From the IMG/VR virus record IMGVR_UViG_2788500220_000008, positions 51,680 to 71,679 of that record: 20,000 nucleotides of DNA; one strand, 5' to 3'. Shown here in pieces: positions 2,990 through 20,000 of this stretch. The stretch comes from an uncultured virus (IMG/VR IMGVR_UViG_2788500220_000008). Its lineage: Duplodnaviria; Heunggongvirae; Uroviricota; Caudoviricetes. Below the pieces are notes generated by a model that made no database searches, was not told where the DNA came from, and saw only the letters and a program-made list of their open reading frames with translations. Numbering within the stretch: position 1 is the first letter of the stretch; every line of letters starts with the position of its first letter. The position numbers and the translations under genes were made by a program.

Positions 2990-4606
2990 TTAGTAGTTTA
3001 CTGTTACGTGTTCTTTAGTGAACGCTTGTTTAAATTTTTGTTTGAGTGTTAGGTCTTCTTCTGAAGATTCTGCATTGTTGTTTGCGACAGCTTCGCCAGT
3101 TTCTTCTGCATTTTCCAATGCGGTGTCCACGACTTGCTCTTCGCTTTCCTCGGAAGTCTCTTCCTGAGATGCGTTGGAAATCTCAGCAAGTCGCTTTTCG
3201 ACCTCCTGATCAATCTTTTCCTTAAGTGATTCCTCCTGCTTGGCTATTTGCTCTTTACTCTTGTGAGCCCATACTACGGCAAGTTTGGCCTGATACTCGG
3301 TAAAGGCCTCTTCGGATTCATCGAGCGACTTAACTTCGGAAGCAAGAATCTGCCGGTCTTCGTCGTCGAGTTGATAAATTTCGTCTACAGCGGCCATCCG
3401 GACTTGAAACCTTTCGGCGGCTTCACGAACCTTGTTGTCTTCTTCAAGACTAGTAAGTGATTCCTTTGTGTCCTTCAATTCGGATTCGAGATTTGAAACC
3501 TTAGCCTCGAATTCAGCTTGCGCTTTAAGAAGTTCTTCCTTTTCGTTTTTGGCTTGCTCGATTTCTTCGACATATTCTTCGTTCTTTACTTTAATGGCAT
3601 CACGAAAGATTTGTCCAAGATTCGCAACAGCTTCATCCGAAAAGCTTTTCTCAGACTTAACGTCTTTGAGTGCTTTTGTGAATTCTTCGATGAGTTGTGA
3701 ATTTTCCATAACTTTTCTGGTGTTTGTTGTTTTTACATGTTCCTGCGAACATTGGGAAATTATTTCTTTATTATTTTTAATTTTTTTTAAAAATTCTAAA
3801 TTATTTATATTAAAACTTTTACAGTCTGCGTAATCCTCCTCTTCTTCCTGACTCTCATGTGCGCCTATTTTTTCTACGTGTACGCCTTGAACATCTGCGG
3901 CCGGATTGGTTGTAAAGCCGATTCCCAAAGGATATACTTCCCCAGACAGTAATCTATAGACAGGTACGCCATCATCAGNTTCTCCAGCCCCTTCATTAGC
4001 TCTTAAATATTTTGAGTATTCCTCAATTTTTTTCTCATCTGTAATGATTTCTGCATTAGATAAGTCCTTGTCTCCCAGTGCAATAATATAATCATTGAAC
4101 CCAACCTCCCAGCTTGCGGAGATGTATTCGTTGTAGTTTTCCGGGTTGTCCGCCATCATTGCGAGCATCTGGGCGAAGGGTCCTCCAGCCATCTTATATA
4201 ATACTGCGGCCAAGGAAATATTGAATGGGGTGATGGTTCCTGCGACTTCAGCCTTCGACAAGAGCCTATTATCGCCAAAGGTAGAAAATGAACTTGATAC
4301 AATATGCCCTACTATATTGTCCCTTTCATGCTCTACATTCGTAGGCTTATGAATAAAGTAATCCCCCACCGCAAGAGCAGTCTCTGTATCTATGCCGTCT
4401 CCATTTTTATTAAACCTATTTACCACGGCAGCGTTAAAGGCTACCGCAACTAAGTCTAAATTCTGCTCAAGATCAATGTCTTCAGGTATTAAGGGTCTCA
4501 ATGACTGCAGAGACGCCTCGGTGATATTCATAGACGGGTCATCGATAGATGACGACGCAGTTATTTCCCCGGTGAATTTGGTCTTATACTTGAAAGGTCT
4601 TTTCAT
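2990..4606 (-). CDS. Prohead protease fused to an acidic coiled-coil scaffold (538 aa)
   Basis: N-terminal NKNGD, KPTNVEH..IVGHI, SASWE and GIGFTTNPA motifs typical of phage maturation proteases; C-terminal Glu/Lys-rich coiled coil; follows the portal gene. Confidence 0.75.
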   Translation of the reverse strand: MKRPFKYKTKFTGEITASSSIDDPSMNITEASLQSLRPLIPEDIDLEQNLDLVAVAFNAAVVNRFNKNGDGIDTETALAVGDYFIHKPTNVEHERDNIVGHIVSSSFSTFGDNRLLSKAEVAGTITPFNISLAAVLYKMAGGPFAQMLAMMADNPENYNEYISASWEVGFNDYIIALGDKDLSNAEIITDEKKIEEYSKYLRANEGAGEXDDGVPVYRLLSGEVYPLGIGFTTNPAADVQGVHVEKIGAHESQEEEEDYADCKSFNINNLEFLKKIKNNKEIISQCSQEHVKTTNTRKVMENSQLIEEFTKALKDVKSEKSFSDEAVANLGQIFRDAIKVKNEEYVEEIEQAKNEKEELLKAQAEFEAKVSNLESELKDTKESLTSLEEDNKVREAAERFQVRMAAVDEIYQLDDEDRQILASEVKSLDESEEAFTEYQAKLAVVWAHKSKEQIAKQEESLKEKIDQEVEKRLAEISNASQEETSEESEEQVVDTALENAEETGEAVANNNAESSEEDLTLKQKFKQAFTKEHVTVNY

Positions 4607-17721: not shown

Positions 17722-17790
17722 ATGCTAGAAGCACTTCTAATGATCACATTCGCTCTACTAATACCAATTCTCACCAAGGCTAACTCATGA
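17722..17790 (+). CDS. Hydrophobic micropeptide 1, MLEALLMITFALLIPILTKANS (22 aa)
   Basis: AGGACAAGG upstream; paralog at 18938-19003 with synonymous codon differences; absent from the ORF track. Confidence 0.65.
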   Translation: MLEALLMITFALLIPILTKANS

Positions 17791-17807: not shown

Positions 17808-17874
17808 TAAGTGGCTGACCCACAAGGGGTTACGCCGCGACTGGCGGCATAAGTACTTGGTGTTCAATGAGTTA
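17808..17874. repeat. Phased palindrome array A: 2 x 25-bp units, 42-bp period
   Basis: TAAGTGGCTG-ACCCA-CAAGGGGTTA, 17-bp GC-rich spacer, TAAGTACTTG-GTGTT-CAATGAGTTA. Confidence 0.8.
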
Positions 17875-17885
17875 CGAAAGCTCCG

Positions 17886-17902
17886 TACACATAGCGTGCC
17901 AA
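17886..17902 (-). promoter_or_regulatory. Sigma54-like box facing array A
   Basis: TTGGCACG-CTAT-GTGTA: canonical -24 element, non-canonical -12. Confidence 0.4.
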
Positions 17903-17975
17903 TCTCACCACTTGCACGCAATCTCACCACTTGCACGCAAACACACCACTTGCACGCAAACGCACCACTTGCACC
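17900..17975. repeat. Tandem direct repeat, 4 x 19 bp
   Basis: CAATCTCACCACTTGCACG x2, CAAACACACCACTTGCACG, CAAACGCACCACTTGCACC. Confidence 0.95.
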
Positions 17976-17996
17976 ATTTGTGTTTAACGCAACCAC

Positions 17997-18052
17997 GGGC
18001 AGTAGAATAAGACACAAACAAAAGTAGGATTGTTTTGCCCGTATGGCTTGAC
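17997..18052 (+). repeat. 56-bp promoter-upstream repeat, copy 1
   Basis: 44/56 identical, without gaps, to 19782-19837; ends in TTGAC of the -35 box. Confidence 0.85.
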
Positions 18053-18076
18053 TTTTCGGAAAAACTAGACTAAATT
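18048..18076 (+). promoter_or_regulatory. Sigma70-type promoter P3 (leaderless)
   Basis: TTGACT-17 bp-TAAATT-6 nt-ATG 18083. Confidence 0.75.
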
Positions 18077-18082
18077 ATAGGT

Positions 18083-18262
18083 ATGTTGAAAATAAAAGAT
18101 ATCGTTCGGATGCCCAACGGAAAAGTTGGAGATGTCCAGTCCATTCATGAAGGCAATGCCATCCACCCCGATGGGCTTGCTTGGGTACGCTTCTACCGCT
18201 CACAGCGTGGAGCGTGGTTTCGCGTTAGCGAACTGCGACCGCTAAAATGGCTCAACGACTGA
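18083..18262 (+). CDS. Small beta-rich (KOW/SH3-like) hypothetical protein (59 aa)
   Basis: MLKIKDIVRMPNGKVGDVQSIHEGNAIHPDGLAWVRFYRSQRGAWFRVSELRPLKWLND; begins at +1 of P3; absent from the ORF track. Confidence 0.7.
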   Translation: MLKIKDIVRMPNGKVGDVQSIHEGNAIHPDGLAWVRFYRSQRGAWFRVSELRPLKWLND

Positions 18263-18296
18263 GCCAAAAAAAACTTAAAAAAAAATGGTGAATCGC

Positions 18297-18325
18297 TTGA
18301 CTTTTCCGCAAAACTAAACTAAGTT
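18297..18325 (+). promoter_or_regulatory. Sigma70-type promoter P4 (leaderless)
   Basis: TTGACT-17 bp-TAAGTT-6 nt-ATG 18332; 18295-18334 is 32/40 identical to the P3 region 18046-18085. Confidence 0.75.
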
Positions 18326-18331
18326 TATAGT

Positions 18332-18574
18332 ATGAAACAACAATATAAAGACCTACTGGACAACGACAAGCTTCCCGCTTTCCCTCTTTCCTCGAAGATT
18401 TTCGACTTGGGGCGAGAAGCCGAGTCGGTTGCCCGAGTTGCACAGAAGAGGATTGATGAAGAGGGCGAGCACGCCCAAATCCATTGTTCCAACATTGTCG
18501 AGTGGATGAACGCAATCGCTGAGAACGCTCAAAAAGCTCTCGACTTTCACTTAAACCAAAACGCCAACAAATAG
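18332..18574 (+). CDS. Hypothetical helical protein (80 aa), paralog of 16966-17205
   Basis: ATG at +1 of P4; internal paralogy. Confidence 0.75.
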   Translation: MKQQYKDLLDNDKLPAFPLSSKIFDLGREAESVARVAQKRIDEEGEHAQIHCSNIVEWMNAIAENAQKALDFHLNQNANK

Positions 18575-18586
18575 GAAGGGAAGCAA

Positions 18587-18751
18587 ATGTACATCCTGCA
18601 ATCAATCGCCAACAACGCAAAATCTTTCGCCAATATCAACTGGCGTACCGAGTCCTTGCCAATGCCATTGCGAAAAGCTGAAAGGCTAATGAAGCAACGC
18701 CTTGCCAATGCAAAGGCAACTCGCTACCGCCTCCGCAAAACCAACGCATAA
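18587..18751 (+). CDS. Basic hypothetical protein (54 aa)
   Basis: AGGAAGGG RBS; MYILQSIANNAKSFANINWRTESLPMPLRKAERLMKQRLANAKATRYRLRKTNA; fills the gap between neighbours. Confidence 0.6.
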   Translation: MYILQSIANNAKSFANINWRTESLPMPLRKAERLMKQRLANAKATRYRLRKTNA

Positions 18752-18761
18752 TCTAATCGCC

Positions 18762-18938
18762 ATGATAGCCACAAGAAAAAATCCGAACTTCTCAAACTGG
18801 ATACAAGTGTTTTTCTTCGGACGCCTTGTCGATGAAGTAACAGGAAACGCCAAAGCTTTACGCCTTGCAAATGAGCTTGGGAAAAAGCACAAGCAAACGC
18901 ACATAAACCATCTTGGCGAAGCAGTAAAGGTACGCTAA
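18762..18938 (+). CDS. Hypothetical protein (58 aa)
   Basis: Start MIATRKNP at 18762 avoids overlap with the upstream ORF; stop overlaps the next ATG (TAATG). Confidence 0.65.
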   Translation: MIATRKNPNFSNWIQVFFFGRLVDEVTGNAKALRLANELGKKHKQTHINHLGEAVKVR

Positions 18939-19003
18939 TGCTAGAAGCTACGCTAATGATACTCTTTGCAATTCTAATCCCGTTCTTGACAAAGTTGGCA
19001 TGA
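18938..19003 (+). CDS. Hydrophobic micropeptide 2, MLEATLMILFAILIPFLTKLA (21 aa)
   Basis: TAATG translational coupling; paralog of 17722-17790. Confidence 0.65.
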   Translation: MLEATLMILFAILIPFLTKLA

Positions 19004-19037
19004 ATCCTGTACCCGAGGAATTGGCATGAAATCTGAA
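18995..19037 (+). promoter_or_regulatory. Two tandem sigma54-like boxes facing array B
   Basis: TTGGCATG-AATC-CTGTA (18995-19011) and TTGGCATG-AAAT-CTGAA (19021-19037). Confidence 0.4.
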
Positions 19038-19048
19038 CGCTAGATTCA

Positions 19049-19157
19049 CAAGTCGCTGATAGCCAAGGGGTTAGGCGGCGCAGGGTGTCGTAAGTCATTG
19101 ATACACAGTAGGTTGCACCGCGTAGGGCGTCGTAAGTCGTTGATAATCAACGGGATG
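19049..19157. repeat. Phased palindrome array B: 3 x 25-bp units, 42-bp period
   Basis: Units start at 19049, 19091 and 19133; 17-bp GC-rich spacers; two exact IHF-consensus matches (YAANNNNTTGATW) at 19091-19103 and 19133-19145. Confidence 0.85.
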
Positions 19158-19173
19158 CCCGTCTGAGTGCGCT

Positions 19174-19260
19174 GTTATTTGGCGTTATTTGGCGCGGAGT
19201 TCACCAGTGTCCACTGCTGTCCACTGCTGTCCACTGCTGTCCCTAGTAGTCCGCCTACTA
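19174..19260. repeat. Cluster of 10-bp tandem repeats and a small inverted repeat
   Basis: GTTATTTGGC x2 (19174-19193), CCACTGCTGT x3 (19211-19240), TAGTAG-TCCGC-CTACTA (19244-19260). Confidence 0.85.
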
Positions 19261-19305
19261 CCACCTAGTAGCCTAACTATAATCTAAAAAAAAGAAAAAT
19301 AAAAC

Positions 19306-19334
19306 TTGCTTTATAGGCCCGCACACTGTAGCTT
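19306..19334 (+). promoter_or_regulatory. Sigma70-type promoter P5 (leaderless)
   Basis: A-tract, then TTGCTT-17 bp-TAGCTT-6 nt-ATG 19341. Confidence 0.7.
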
Positions 19335-19340
19335 GTACTT

Positions 19341-19670
19341 ATGGAAATTGAAAATGATTCTCTCGCCCGCCTTGCTCACGCCCACGGCATGACCGACCTC
19401 GAATTCGAGGAACGGGAAGCTGTGCTTGCTGACATTGCCCAGCAGCAGGTCATCCGTCGCAGAATGGAGGAGGAGGCCCGCCGTGACGAGTGGTGCGAAG
19501 GTGCGGGGATTCCGTCTATCGACGAGTTCCCTCCTTTGTCCGCTGAGGATTTGGCCGCCATTGAACGCGATGAGGCCGAGGTTGCTCGTCGTGTGGCTGA
19601 GGCCCGCGAGCGTGAGGCCAACACTGACTTCTCAATACTCACTGACGAGGAGATGGGCGGAGACTGGTAG
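19341..19670 (+). CDS. Highly acidic hypothetical protein (109 aa)
   Basis: 31 Asp/Glu, 12 Arg, no Lys; ATG at +1 of P5. Confidence 0.75.
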   Translation: MEIENDSLARLAHAHGMTDLEFEEREAVLADIAQQQVIRRRMEEEARRDEWCEGAGIPSIDEFPPLSAEDLAAIERDEAEVARRVAEAREREANTDFSILTDEEMGGDW

Positions 19671-19673
19671 ACG

Positions 19674-19740
19674 TAAGTCCTTGGCCCACAGGGGGTTACG
19701 GCCCCCTGCGCGGCATAAGTACCTGATATGCAGCAACTTA
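19674..19740. repeat. Phased palindrome array C: 2 x 25-bp units, 42-bp period
   Basis: TAAGTCCTTG-GCCCA-CAGGGGGTTA, 17-bp spacer, TAAGTACCTG-ATATG-CAGCAACTTA; followed by a near-identical copy of the 26-bp tail that follows array A. Confidence 0.85.
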
Positions 19741-19751
19741 TGAAAGCTCCG

Positions 19752-19768
19752 TACAGATAGCGTGCCAG
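19752..19768 (-). promoter_or_regulatory. Sigma54-like box facing array C
   Basis: CTGGCACG-CTAT-CTGTA. Confidence 0.4.
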
Positions 19769-19781
19769 TTTGCTTGGAGAG

Positions 19782-19837
19782 GGGCAGTAGAATAGTGCAA
19801 GAAAAAAAGTAGAATTGTTTTGCCCAATCGGTTTGAC
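19782..19837 (+). repeat. 56-bp promoter-upstream repeat, copy 2
   Basis: 44/56 identical to 17997-18052. Confidence 0.85.
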
Positions 19838-19861
19838 AAATCGGGTTTTTGGGCTTATGTT
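19833..19861 (+). promoter_or_regulatory. Sigma70-type promoter P6
   Basis: TTGACA-17 bp-TATGTT; leader ATAACAAATTAAAAAAGGAAAA resembles the P1 leader. Confidence 0.8.
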
Positions 19862-19891: not shown

Positions 19892-20000
19892 ATGATTGAA
19901 GTAAGTTACATTCTCCACAACCTAGACAAAAACGGCAAACGCCTTGAAACGCAAAACTTTCTCCGCAAGTGCATAGTGGAAAAGGTAGAATCCATTTTCG
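19892..20000 (+). CDS. Hypothetical protein, truncated by the window end
   Basis: AAAGGAAAA RBS; MIEVSYILHNLDKNGKRLETQNFLRKCIVEKVESIF... Confidence 0.65.
   Translation, partial: MIEVSYILHNLDKNGKRLETQNFLRKCIVEKVESIF

Follow-up and report, generated by a model that had tools for sequence, protein, structure and literature searches.

Sites for IHF occur upstream of phage early promoters such as lambda pL and Mu Pe. Cluster A mycobacteriophages contain stoperators; these are single 13-bp asymmetric sites, which are bound by the phage repressor and oriented with transcription. The RIP and RIB elements of E. coli, i.e. BIMEs with an IHF site, have the order REP, IHF site, REP; they are located at the 3' ends of genes and rarely between divergent genes. 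Judged by analogy, the closest known system to the one analyzed here is that of the PeSL (promoter-early stem-loop) cassettes of T4-type phages (Arbiol 2010, PMC2839356; Comeau 2014, PMC4122927).

The element described in the following is located in a contig from a marine phage of roughly 150 kb, which is likely long-tailed. The window, meaning the whole stretch of 20,000 nucleotides under analysis, contains three arrays of 25-bp near-palindromes with a period of 42 bp, which had been noticed from the letters alone (the sequence-only reading). Literature searches on PeSL and on IHF, phage and intergenic repeats yielded no description of this element, and in print the 10-mers of the unit turned up in unrelated primers only.

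Results

Seven units form three sites in the window

The sequence-only reading had reported seven units. All of them were confirmed by the pattern scan on the + strand, with starts at 17808, 17850, 19049, 19091, 19133, 19674 and 19716. Site 1 consists of unit 1 (17808..17832) and unit 2 (17850..17874) on either side of a 17-bp GC core (17833..17849). This core reads CGCCGC-N5-GCGGCA and is self-complementary, as seen from the sequence and from the covariation of the core in the family. Site 2 has three units (19049..19073, 19091..19115 and 19133..19157), which are separated by two 17-bp cores (19074..19090 and 19116..19132). The left arm of its second unit is an exact reverse-complement match to the IHF consensus WATCAANNNNTTR, a string quoted from an excerpt of PMC8942017, and the left arm of its third unit fits this consensus; the earlier claim of two such left arms is hence borne out at 19091 and 19133. 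Site 3 consists of units at 19674..19698 and 19716..19740, the latter of which matched the pattern on both strands. Its core (19699..19715) shows poor self-complementarity in this copy, as judged from sequence and folding. The four stretches between units are, as had been claimed, exactly 17 bp long, GC-rich and mutually different, with the endings GGCA, GTCG, GTCG and GGCA.

A scan with TAAGTNNNTGNNNNNCANNNNNTTR at up to one mismatch found 10 matches in the window, where 0.24 were expected, and none of 200 shuffles reached 10. Besides the seven + strand units, the matches comprise two hits to these units on the - strand and a lone match at 4061 that is unrelated. Tandem Repeats Finder did not report the arrays in the window because the conservation covers just part of each period. 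A tRNA search of the window found 0 genes.

The sites are confined to one region of a widespread phage family

The sequence-only reading had left it to a wider scan whether more copies exist; in the assembly and in IMG/VR the pattern extends far outside the window. The exact pattern matched 19 times in the whole 4.9-Mb assembly, compared with 4 matches of a reversed control pattern, and 16 of these 19 matches lie either in the tail of contig C4, which holds the window, or in C12:19256-31306. A 131-bp module of site 2 (19019-19149) was found again at C12:31378-31248 with 97.7% identity. If C4 is joined to the reversed C12, with which it overlaps, the inferred region has 14 sites in ~15.4 kb, and there are none elsewhere in those 104 kb.

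The IMG/VR pattern scan detected 114 loci, and these gave 223 distinct sites; an estimate from the matches listed in a second scan is that ~310 stored viral stretches carry a unit pair. Three related whole phage records contained 15, 10 and 14 sites in a single-unit scan. All 39 sites are pairs exactly 42 bp apart, and those of each record lie within one small-gene region of 10-14 kb. The terminases of these three records are 64-87% identical to that of the window's phage. Cultured relatives are distant at the terminase level (<27% identity), and blastn with the window found no match among cultured phages. The small proteins of the array region gave almost no matches in Pfam and PHROGs.

The phage family has a giant tape-measure-like gene and is therefore likely long-tailed and not T4-like. 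An idea of N4-like hairpin promoters was dropped; the giant ORF encodes a tape-measure-like protein. Integrase was found in none of eight related phage records, four of which are rated 100% complete, so these phages are probably not temperate. The phage contigs share a bin with the assembly genome, a host link that consists of binning only, and the IMG/VR relatives were found in bins of unrelated phyla.

The 17-bp core covaries and is conserved

The stretches between the units had been taken for variable spacers. In the family they are instead a conserved, covarying and self-complementary GC core. Core positions were paired in 71.7% of cells compared with 57.2 +/- 1.3 in shuffled data, and the covariation score was 0.445 versus 0.218 after shuffling; none of 500 shuffles was as high in either measure. 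The pair S6-S12, for example, is G:C in 98/223 sites and C:G in 97/223. The cores fall into 62 sequence clusters, which keep the dyad symmetry. The core of the 42-bp clade has no T-run. The sites of a 58-bp clade (10/10) have a hairpin core, whose T-run lies on the strand that carries the incoming genes.

The exact period of 42 bp had been explained by about four helical turns, which would place all units on the same face of the DNA. This explanation fails in relatives with other periods: phages whose terminase is homologous have the same unit at 40-41, 48-51, 53, 58 and 60 bp. Because the periods of the relatives range from 40 to 60 bp, the argument of four helical turns is no family rule. 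The exact period of 42 bp goes back to a core, a putative hairpin, that is specific to the clade, and not to helical phasing.

These data also bear on the idea that a repeat-spacer array is transcribed into small guide-like RNAs. The layout of repeat (25) and spacer (17) bears a superficial resemblance to such an array, and a conserved box, which is located 27 nt from some site edges, points inward. However, only 12/187 core positions differ between orthologous sites; since the spacers are conserved and self-complementary, they are not acquired sequences of the CRISPR kind. Furthermore, the arrays have 2-3 units only, and the orientation of the sites is mixed. The sole RNA contig on the stretch covers 18346-18566 only and lies inside an ORF; the lack of cover elsewhere proves nothing. 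With 0 Rfam matches in the window, no covariation in the units, unremarkable folds and mixed polarity, this alternative of the sequence-only reading found no support, and we consider it extremely improbable.

The 25-bp unit resembles a doubled IHF site

Over the whole family the unit has the consensus TAAGTCGTTGA-nTA-TCAAnnnnTTA. At least one arm contains the full WATCAANNNNTTR in 187/446 units of the family and in 2/7 units of the window; the background of this string in phage genomes is 0.13-0.27 matches per kb. The shorter CAA-N4-TTR is present in 387/446 left arms and 279/446 right arms. The resemblance of each unit to two inverted IHF-like half sites, which had been proposed from the window, is thus stronger in the family than in the window itself. 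Unit positions 16-18 and 23-25 have a high information content, whereas that of 19-22 is low; the low positions coincide with the NNNN of the consensus, and in both arms conserved and variable positions track it. The left arm is far better conserved than the IHF consensus demands and also keeps GTCG in consensus-free positions; conservation in one arm thereby goes past the consensus (AAGTCG). An ECF-type promoter (AAC-N16-CGT) was considered for the unit and rejected; its spacing suits few flanks only.

The covariation test, which had been suggested for separating RNA structure from DNA sites, showed no excess pairing in the units and covariation in the core. Between the arms of a unit, 82.5% of cells are paired compared with 82.2 +/- 0.3 in shuffled data, a value reached in 95/500 shuffles, and the pair 7-19 is G:G in 86/223 sites. 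In an alignment of 144 sites, 11 columns do not vary. Between orthologous sites of two related phages, G002 and G003, changes were found in 11/308 conserved unit positions, 52/242 variable unit positions and 159/880 flanking positions. Because the units do not covary and their positions track the IHF consensus, they are best read as protein docking sites and not as hairpins. The earlier proposal of binding sites gains from this: the units appear to behave as sequence-specific duplex docking sites, whose arms do not covary and whose conserved positions are slow to change.

The best candidate for the binder is likely the host IHF, with some phage protein as the alternative. Among the proteins of the bin with the phage contigs are an IHF-alpha equivalog (136.6 bits; cut-off 111) and two IHF-beta/HU-like proteins with scores below the cut-off; a protein of the HU/IHF family (PF00216) was present in 0/8 related phage records. 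Judged by the IHF-H' crystal structure, the two inverted consensus copies would lie 2 bp too near each other for a single dimer to read both. The polarity of the unit is common to both units of a site in 123 concordant versus 31 discordant cases; it does not follow the side of the promoter (25 versus 17 among strongly polar sites).

Five small proteins that are conserved in the 42-bp clade were considered as binders and rejected; four are absent from all four genomes of other clades, a result obtained with short queries of low sensitivity, and the fifth is present in 2/4 of them. An HTH_3 domain was also discarded; it matched only 2/8 records, below the cut-off and inside a 384-aa frame.

Sites follow gene ends, and typical copies precede predicted promoters

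The sites are mostly intergenic (193/223). A clean gene context was available for 160 sites, of which 102 are between tandem, 40 between convergent and 18 between divergent genes. The sites come after gene ends, at a median distance of 31 nt from the stop codon, and a separate hairpin-plus-T terminator was found at 34/182 incoming gene ends.

A strict promoter with a leaderless ATG was detected within 160 nt of 131/221 sites, compared with 184/2000 random windows, and of 143 promoter hits 62 begin at a distance of 28-31 nt from the edge of the site. Typical copies are thus located 28-31 bp upstream of a sigma-70-like -35 hexamer, which is followed by a leaderless ATG. Next to this main class of offsets there is a minor one at 39-42 nt; a helical phasing of the offset is only suggestive. 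A further class at 16-20 nt may reflect a misassigned -35. No strict promoter match on either side was found for 90/221 sites. Of the sites between convergent genes, 37/40 have no promoter nearby, so the module is not just an upstream activating sequence. The flanks of the sites contain A/T-rich motifs, which together with the promoter occur family-wide in the manner of a PeSL-type cassette. The conserved box at 27 nt from some site edges, which points into the site, reads GG-N10-GA and not GG-N10-GC; a sigma-54 reading was abandoned.

The three sites of the window are degenerate and displaced copies, with the next promoter 92-173 nt away, and none of them has the canonical offset. A promoter with a leaderless start (TTGACT-17-TAAATT-6-ATG, 18048..18085, + strand) is predicted from the sequence, repeat D6 and the promoter scan for ORF 18083-18262, 173 nt past site 1. 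A second one (TTGCTT-17-TAGCTT-6-ATG, 19306..19343, + strand) is predicted from the sequence and the ORF list for ORF 19341-19670, 148 nt past site 2. The third predicted promoter (TTGACA-17-TATGTT, 19833..19861, + strand; sequence and promoter scan) lies 92 nt past site 3, and the gene at 19893 has a leader. A generic promoter scan of the stretch gave 4 hits versus 4.4 expected, which is not above chance, and no terminator-like site was called on the + strand near the window's sites. Tandem repeats are inserted between the sites of the window and the next promoters, except at site 3, which has none.

The placement of the sites raises the question of whether the composite acts in RNA only, as a bidirectional terminator, a 3'-end stabilizer or an RNase III-type processing site, with no DNA-binding protein involved. 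Such a structure would take the form of three hairpins or of one long hairpin. The short distance to the stop codons, the scarcity of separate terminators and the 40/160 sites between convergent genes would suit this explanation, as would the covariation of the core and the T-run on the transcribed strand in the 58-bp clade; at the unit pairs 5-21 and 8-18, T:G is far above C:A, and the PeSL stem-loops are proven terminators according to the excerpt of PMC2839356. The units, on the other hand, argue against it: their arms do not covary, and the variable positions are mostly unpaired (73/143 and 81/143 cells at two pairs). The polarity of the unit is independent of gene direction in the related phage G001 and split 61 to 41 over the family. 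Also, the 42-bp core has no T-run, the folding of the window sites is unremarkable (z -1.3 to -3.4), the predicted folds vary among copies, and canonical terminators adjoin the sites in some relatives. The Rfam search and the units, whose helices show no excess pairing, do not point to a structured RNA family. We therefore regard an action in RNA only as unlikely.

Recombination and replication

The array region is hyperplastic; the collinear G002 and G003 (86-92% identity) differ there by several gene replacements and indels, which would be expected if the sites were recombination points for the exchange of small-gene cassettes, either by a dedicated recombinase (integron-like) or by homologous recombination (PeSL-like shuffling). 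One replacement junction is inside a site (G002 20078 versus G003 12799), another replacement begins 25 nt past a site, and in another relative, G004, the edges of unit B are where a duplicated cassette breaks. Shuffling of this kind is mediated by PeSLs, as stated in the excerpts of PMC2839356 and PMC4122927. Against this, only 4/16 breakpoints between G002 and G003 are within 100 nt of a site in a hand count, with ~24% expected by chance. Three marine DNA runs yielded contigs that cover the stretch and break at repeats, with no joint at any site. The 11-3-11 layout of the unit is not known to match the core spacing of tyrosine or serine recombinase sites. Tyrosine (PF00589) and serine (PF00239) recombinases were both found in 0/8 related phage records; the same profiles detected them in 14/14 and 12/14 control genomes, respectively. 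The dedicated recombination function that had been considered earlier is hence left without support, and we judge recombination at the sites to be improbable.

The sites might otherwise serve DNA replication, partition, stepwise DNA entry or the titration of a host factor, i.e. as an origin, a centromere, an injection stop or a decoy. Origins and P1 parS have IHF sites inside. Many phased IHF-type sites could sequester IHF, and iteron-like tandem repeats (19 bp x3.9 and 10 bp x3.5) lie beside the first sites in the window; G004 has repeats of ~51 bp. These repeats vary among the sites, however, and are missing at site 3. The presence of 10-15 sites between individual genes over 10-15 kb, tied to promoters, is unlike a single origin or centromere. 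ParB (PF02195) was found in 0/8 related phage records, which leaves partition of the ParB type without support. Taken together, we think that such roles are improbable.

Discussion

The explanation that we favor, with roughly even confidence, is that the arrays are a DNA-level boundary module, in which the units likely dock a DNA-bending protein around the self-complementary GC core. The protein would bind the units and bend the DNA, and the core would form a hairpin or cruciform and would thus attenuate read-through. Once bound, the module would insulate neighboring cassettes of small genes and determine how strong the next promoter is or when it is active; it would, in other words, mark the border between the end of one gene and the next promoter. 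If this boundary reading holds, one short and rigid module organizes the whole region of accessory genes in a widespread family of uncultured phages of 110-170 kb. It would then help to predict early promoters and the limits of transcription units from phage metagenomes, and would provide a route to the regulator, be it host IHF or a new phage protein, and a marker for the points at which small genes of unknown function are swapped among relatives.

A more elaborate version, which we consider unlikely, treats the module as a structural DNA switch. The negative supercoiling that early transcription generates would extrude the GC core as a cruciform, which would join the bent docking sites, and a bound nucleoid or phage protein would gate each accessory cassette independently. 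The docking sites would meet whatever the length of the core; on this reading the relatives could therefore keep the unit while the period varies from 40 to 60 bp. If true, the element would be a new kind of insulator and promoter gate and not an ordinary IHF site, and it would be shared by an entire family of large phages from marine and fresh waters.

The boundary module can be compared with the systems mentioned at the outset. PeSLs, as far as the excerpts of the two papers go, are likewise intergenic cassettes that recur in a hyperplastic region, whose small genes have no known function; between the end of one gene and the start of the next, they also combine a sigma-70-like promoter with an A/T-rich tract and with a GC-rich stem-loop, which is putative in the module here. 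In these excerpts, however, PeSLs lack the two or three strongly conserved 25-bp near-palindromes that flank the stem-loop here. The stem-loop of a PeSL is in or around the promoter, whereas here it is upstream of the promoter at a fixed distance, and PeSL genes have a Shine-Dalgarno sequence in contrast to the leaderless genes here. In addition, the likely long-tailed phages of this family differ from T4-like phages, breakpoints are near sites only at the level of chance (4/16), and terminator activity of the module here is putative.

Stoperators are similar in that many copies of one short protein site are dispersed among small phage genes. The elements here differ from them as paired palindromes with a hairpin core, and 0/8 relatives have an integrase. 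With IHF sites the units share the pattern of fixed and free positions in WATCAANNNNTTR and the location tens of bp upstream of sigma-70-type phage promoters. The units, which are candidate sites on the basis of sequence alone, differ in that the consensus is doubled to a palindrome, two or three copies of which surround a GC hairpin core at a fixed period, and in that one arm shows conservation past the consensus (AAGTCG). RIP and RIB elements also combine GC-rich extragenic palindromes with the IHF consensus and have the same placement at gene 3' ends. Here the order is inverted to IHF-like site, palindrome, IHF-like site, and the elements belong to phages, are restricted to one region and are tied to promoters.

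A family of paired-unit sites

All seven 25-bp near-palindromic units claimed in a sequence-only reading of the window were confirmed. They start at 17808 and 17850 (site 1), at 19049, 19091 and 19133 (site 2) and at 19674 and 19716 (site 3), and the four stretches between them are, as claimed, GC-rich and exactly 17 bp long. With at most one mismatch the unit pattern has 10 matches in the window vs 0.24 expected, and 0/200 shuffles reach 10; the matches comprise the seven units, two of these again on the opposite strand and one stray at 4061.

The window is the final 20 kb of C4, a contig of a 4.9-Mb bin; the GC content of this phage DNA is 44% as opposed to 37-39% in the bin. C4 encodes a large terminase, PhoH, and methyl- and glycosyltransferases. 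Upstream on C4 are tail proteins and a 4969-aa tape-measure-like ORF (locus L147 at G000 C4:97-15006, outside the window), whose residues 27-217 form a phage minor-tail (tape-measure) domain. The related phage G001 has an ORF of 5036 aa; with a tape measure of this size, the tail would be unusually long. Over its last 214 bp, C4 matches the end of C12, a second contig of the assembly, in reverse orientation (98.6%), and from this match we infer that the array, the small-gene region holding the sites, continues into C12. The joined region has 14 sites in ~15.4 kb, of which three are three-unit sites; no further site was found in the rest of the 104 kb of C4 and C12. C24 is judged, by similarity to relatives, to be part of the same phage.

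Further 42-bp-phased copies exist elsewhere. Searching IMG/VR for unit pairs with a 42-bp period gave 114 loci on roughly 45 contigs, and together with the window's own genome these yielded 223 distinct composite sites. Species-representative genomes contained only 12 loci, all on metagenome-bin contigs from bins of unrelated phyla. Since the pair scan had the 42-bp period built in, the unbiased test was a single-unit weight matrix applied to the full length of three related phage records, with terminases that share 64-87% identity with that of the window. The matrix detected 15, 10 and 14 sites in the three, all of them pairs with a period of exactly 42 bp, plus one stray single unit; in each record the sites keep to a single small-gene region of 10-14 kb, located about 10 kb away from the terminase gene. 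Among neighbour distances below 200 bp in the fetched loci, 254/308 are 42 bp, with minor classes at 41 (n=14) and 40 bp (n=9).

A wider scan, in which the 10-mer AAGTCGTTGA had to occur twice at a distance of 35-65 bp, matched at least 156 loci, and about 310 stored stretches are estimated to match. Among the 122 distinct pairs in the matches listed, a few of which are coding repeats and not sites, the most frequent periods are 50 bp (n=28), 42 bp (n=10) and 48 bp (n=9), followed by 41 bp (n=8), 40, 49 and 60 bp (n=6 each) and 53 and 58 bp (n=5 each); the remaining pairs have other values. A homologous terminase (38-61% identity) is present in each of the four large records that carry 50- or 58-bp sites. 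The period is 58 bp at all 10 sites of one relative, G009, while another, G008, has seven 50-bp pairs and one single unit. Because periods differ among relatives with homologous terminases, the four helical turns seen earlier in the 42-bp period are not a family invariant: the period is clade-specific, and what is invariant is unit, hairpin core, unit.

Units and core

The family unit consensus is CG-TAAGTCGTTGA-nTA-TCAAnnnnTTA-CG. A covariation check on the unit arms, which bears on RNA structure as opposed to DNA sites, revealed no pairing excess over shuffles: across 22 arm pairs in an ungapped alignment of 144 sites, 82.5% of cells are paired vs 82.2 +/- 0.3 in shuffles, 95/500 of which are as high. 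The palindrome thus stems from each arm's own consensus and not from selection for pairing. Variable unit positions are mostly unpaired (two pairs in 73/143 and 81/143 cells), pair 7-19 is G:G in 86/223 sites, and long-range pairing between units A and B shows no excess. As judged from these alignments, the units are probably sequence motifs and not hairpins. That the sites act as RNA structure is disfavored by this lack of covariation in the arms, and also by the lack of an Rfam match, by folds of the window sites that are unremarkable and inconsistent between copies, and by a site orientation that is mixed relative to the genes.

The 17-bp stretch had been taken for a spacer. Across its seven pairs, 71.7% of cells are paired vs 57.2 +/- 1.3 in shuffles, and its covariation score is 0.445 vs 0.218, with 0/500 shuffles as high in either case; these controls ignore relatedness, so that the core figures overstate independence, and a cluster-level table agrees in outcome. 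Both-sided changes are present at all seven pairs, and pair S6-S12 is G:C in 98/223 and C:G in 97/223 sites. The 176 distinct cores form 62 clusters, ranging from GGGCAGCC-A-GGCTGCC to CAAAAGTC-C-GACTTTCG, and the dyad is kept in all of them; the centre, C-N-G, gives a 3-nt loop. Between 11 orthologous sites of the close pair G002/G003, only 12/187 core positions changed; the changes numbered 11/308 at conserved unit positions, 52/242 at variable ones and 159/880 in the flanks. Pairing excess, covariation and the few changes between orthologues refute the spacer reading, and the stretch is a conserved self-complementary core. The G009 core, CGACCCC-N4-GGGGTCG, has a T-run on the incoming-gene strand in 10/10 sites and looks like an intrinsic terminator, but all ten copies are related by descent.

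Placement of the sites and array genes

No overlap with a called ORF was found for 193/223 sites. Gene context was scored for 191 sites whose flanks extend 400 nt or more, reduced to 160 by dropping 31 with ORF overlap or no neighbouring gene. Tandem genes surround 102 of the 160, with a promoter on the expected side in 58/102; 40 are in a convergent context, 37 of these without a promoter, and 18 in a divergent one. The incoming stop codon is a median of 31 nt from the site, and a separate hairpin-plus-T terminator was found at only 34/182 of the incoming gene ends.

A strict promoter pattern (TTGNNN, 16-18 nt, [TG]ANNNT, 4-7 nt, ATG), searched up to 160 nt from the site, occurs at 131/221 sites vs 184/2000 random windows. 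The promoter starts 28-31 nt from the site edge in 62/143 matches, with an A/T-rich tract between. Since the -10-like hexamer lies 4-7 nt before the ATG, the small genes downstream are predicted to be leaderless.

In the window, the next predicted promoter is 173, 148 and 92 nt from sites 1, 2 and 3, and these intervals contain inserted tandem repeats and a hairpin; a generic promoter scan of the site stretch was not above chance. The repeats are iteron-like: 19 bp x3.9 (17900-17974), 10 bp x2.1 with the motif TATTTG-N4-TATTTG (19174-19194) and 10 bp x3.5 (19208-19242). The same motif follows a number of sites, in several relatives too; G008 has another doubled motif, TCTAACAG, ahead of its sites, and the relative G004 has ~51-bp tandem repeats behind its first two. 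The design TTGACT/TTGCTT, 17 nt, TANNNT, 6 nt, ATG recurs at 18048-18085, 18297-18334 and 19306-19343, and also across the phage family. A conserved box, TTGGCAYG-N4/5-TGNAC, is found at a distance of exactly 27 nt from a site edge, in every case directed towards the site (19021-19043 on the plus strand, with a tandem copy at 18995-19017; 17875-17901 and 19741-19767 on the minus strand); family-wide it occupies this position in 12/446 flanks. It reads GG-N10-GA, which excludes a canonical sigma-54 promoter.

Two paralogous hydrophobic mini-ORFs of 22 and 21 aa (MLEALLMITFALLIPILTKANS-like; 17722-17790 and 18938-19003) are both found immediately upstream of a site, the second one overlapping the stop codon before it (TAATG). 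Paralogous 58-61-aa proteins (NF..WIQVF.FG...GNA.ALRLA...THIN) are encoded at 18764-18938 and on C12 (L001:12738-12923); homologs occur in G001, G002 and G004 and were not found in G006-G009. Of the array genes, only two could be assigned to a Pfam family; they encode GP88 (PF17338; L001:10488-11213) and DUF932 (L001:9088-10074), both on C12, and are kept in relatives in shuffled order. The window stretch is present in marine metagenomes of several studies, with contigs breaking at repeats. One marine run has a 126-bp in-frame deletion variant (19472-19599) of ORF 19341-19670, detected through a contig joint whose shorter side has 99 letters. Metatranscriptomes gave one contig, covering only 18346-18566.

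Recombination, partition and IHF

The many replacements between G002 and G003 within the array mark the region as hyperplastic, and one junction falls inside a site, as would fit recombination points. However, 0/8 related records encode a tyrosine or serine recombinase, and breakpoints within 100 nt of a site number only 4/16 (hand count), about chance level; neither result supports the recombination role proposed earlier, and no metagenome contig joint lies at a site. ParB is likewise encoded in 0/8 records, which argues against a centromere.

The consensus of IHF, a DNA-bending host protein, is given as WATCAANNNNTTR in PMC8942017. At least one arm matches it fully in 187/446 family units, CAA-N4-TTR occurs in 387/446 left and 279/446 right arms, and the low-information right-arm positions 19-22 coincide with its NNNN. 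The match reported for two left arms in the window holds, in full, for 19091 and 19133 only. No HU/IHF-family protein was found in the 8 related phage records; the bin has genes for an IHF-alpha equivalog and, with weaker matches, for two IHF-beta/HU-like proteins. The units are candidate IHF sites, but three observations speak against pure IHF sites: AAGTCG is conserved in the left arm beyond the consensus, the two units of a site share a polarity (123 concordant vs 31 discordant) that is not tied to the promoter side (25 vs 17 in strongly polar sites), and the bin is only a putative host.

Comparison with known systems

Literature searches found no description of this paired-unit element. 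The closest described system is the promoter-early stem-loop (PeSL) cassette of T4-type phages (PMC2839356, PMC4122927). Promoter, A/T tract, GC stem-loop and hyperplastic region are common to both, whereas conserved palindromes flanking the stem-loop, a fixed position upstream, predicted leaderless starts and a phage family other than the T4-type distinguish the paired-unit family.
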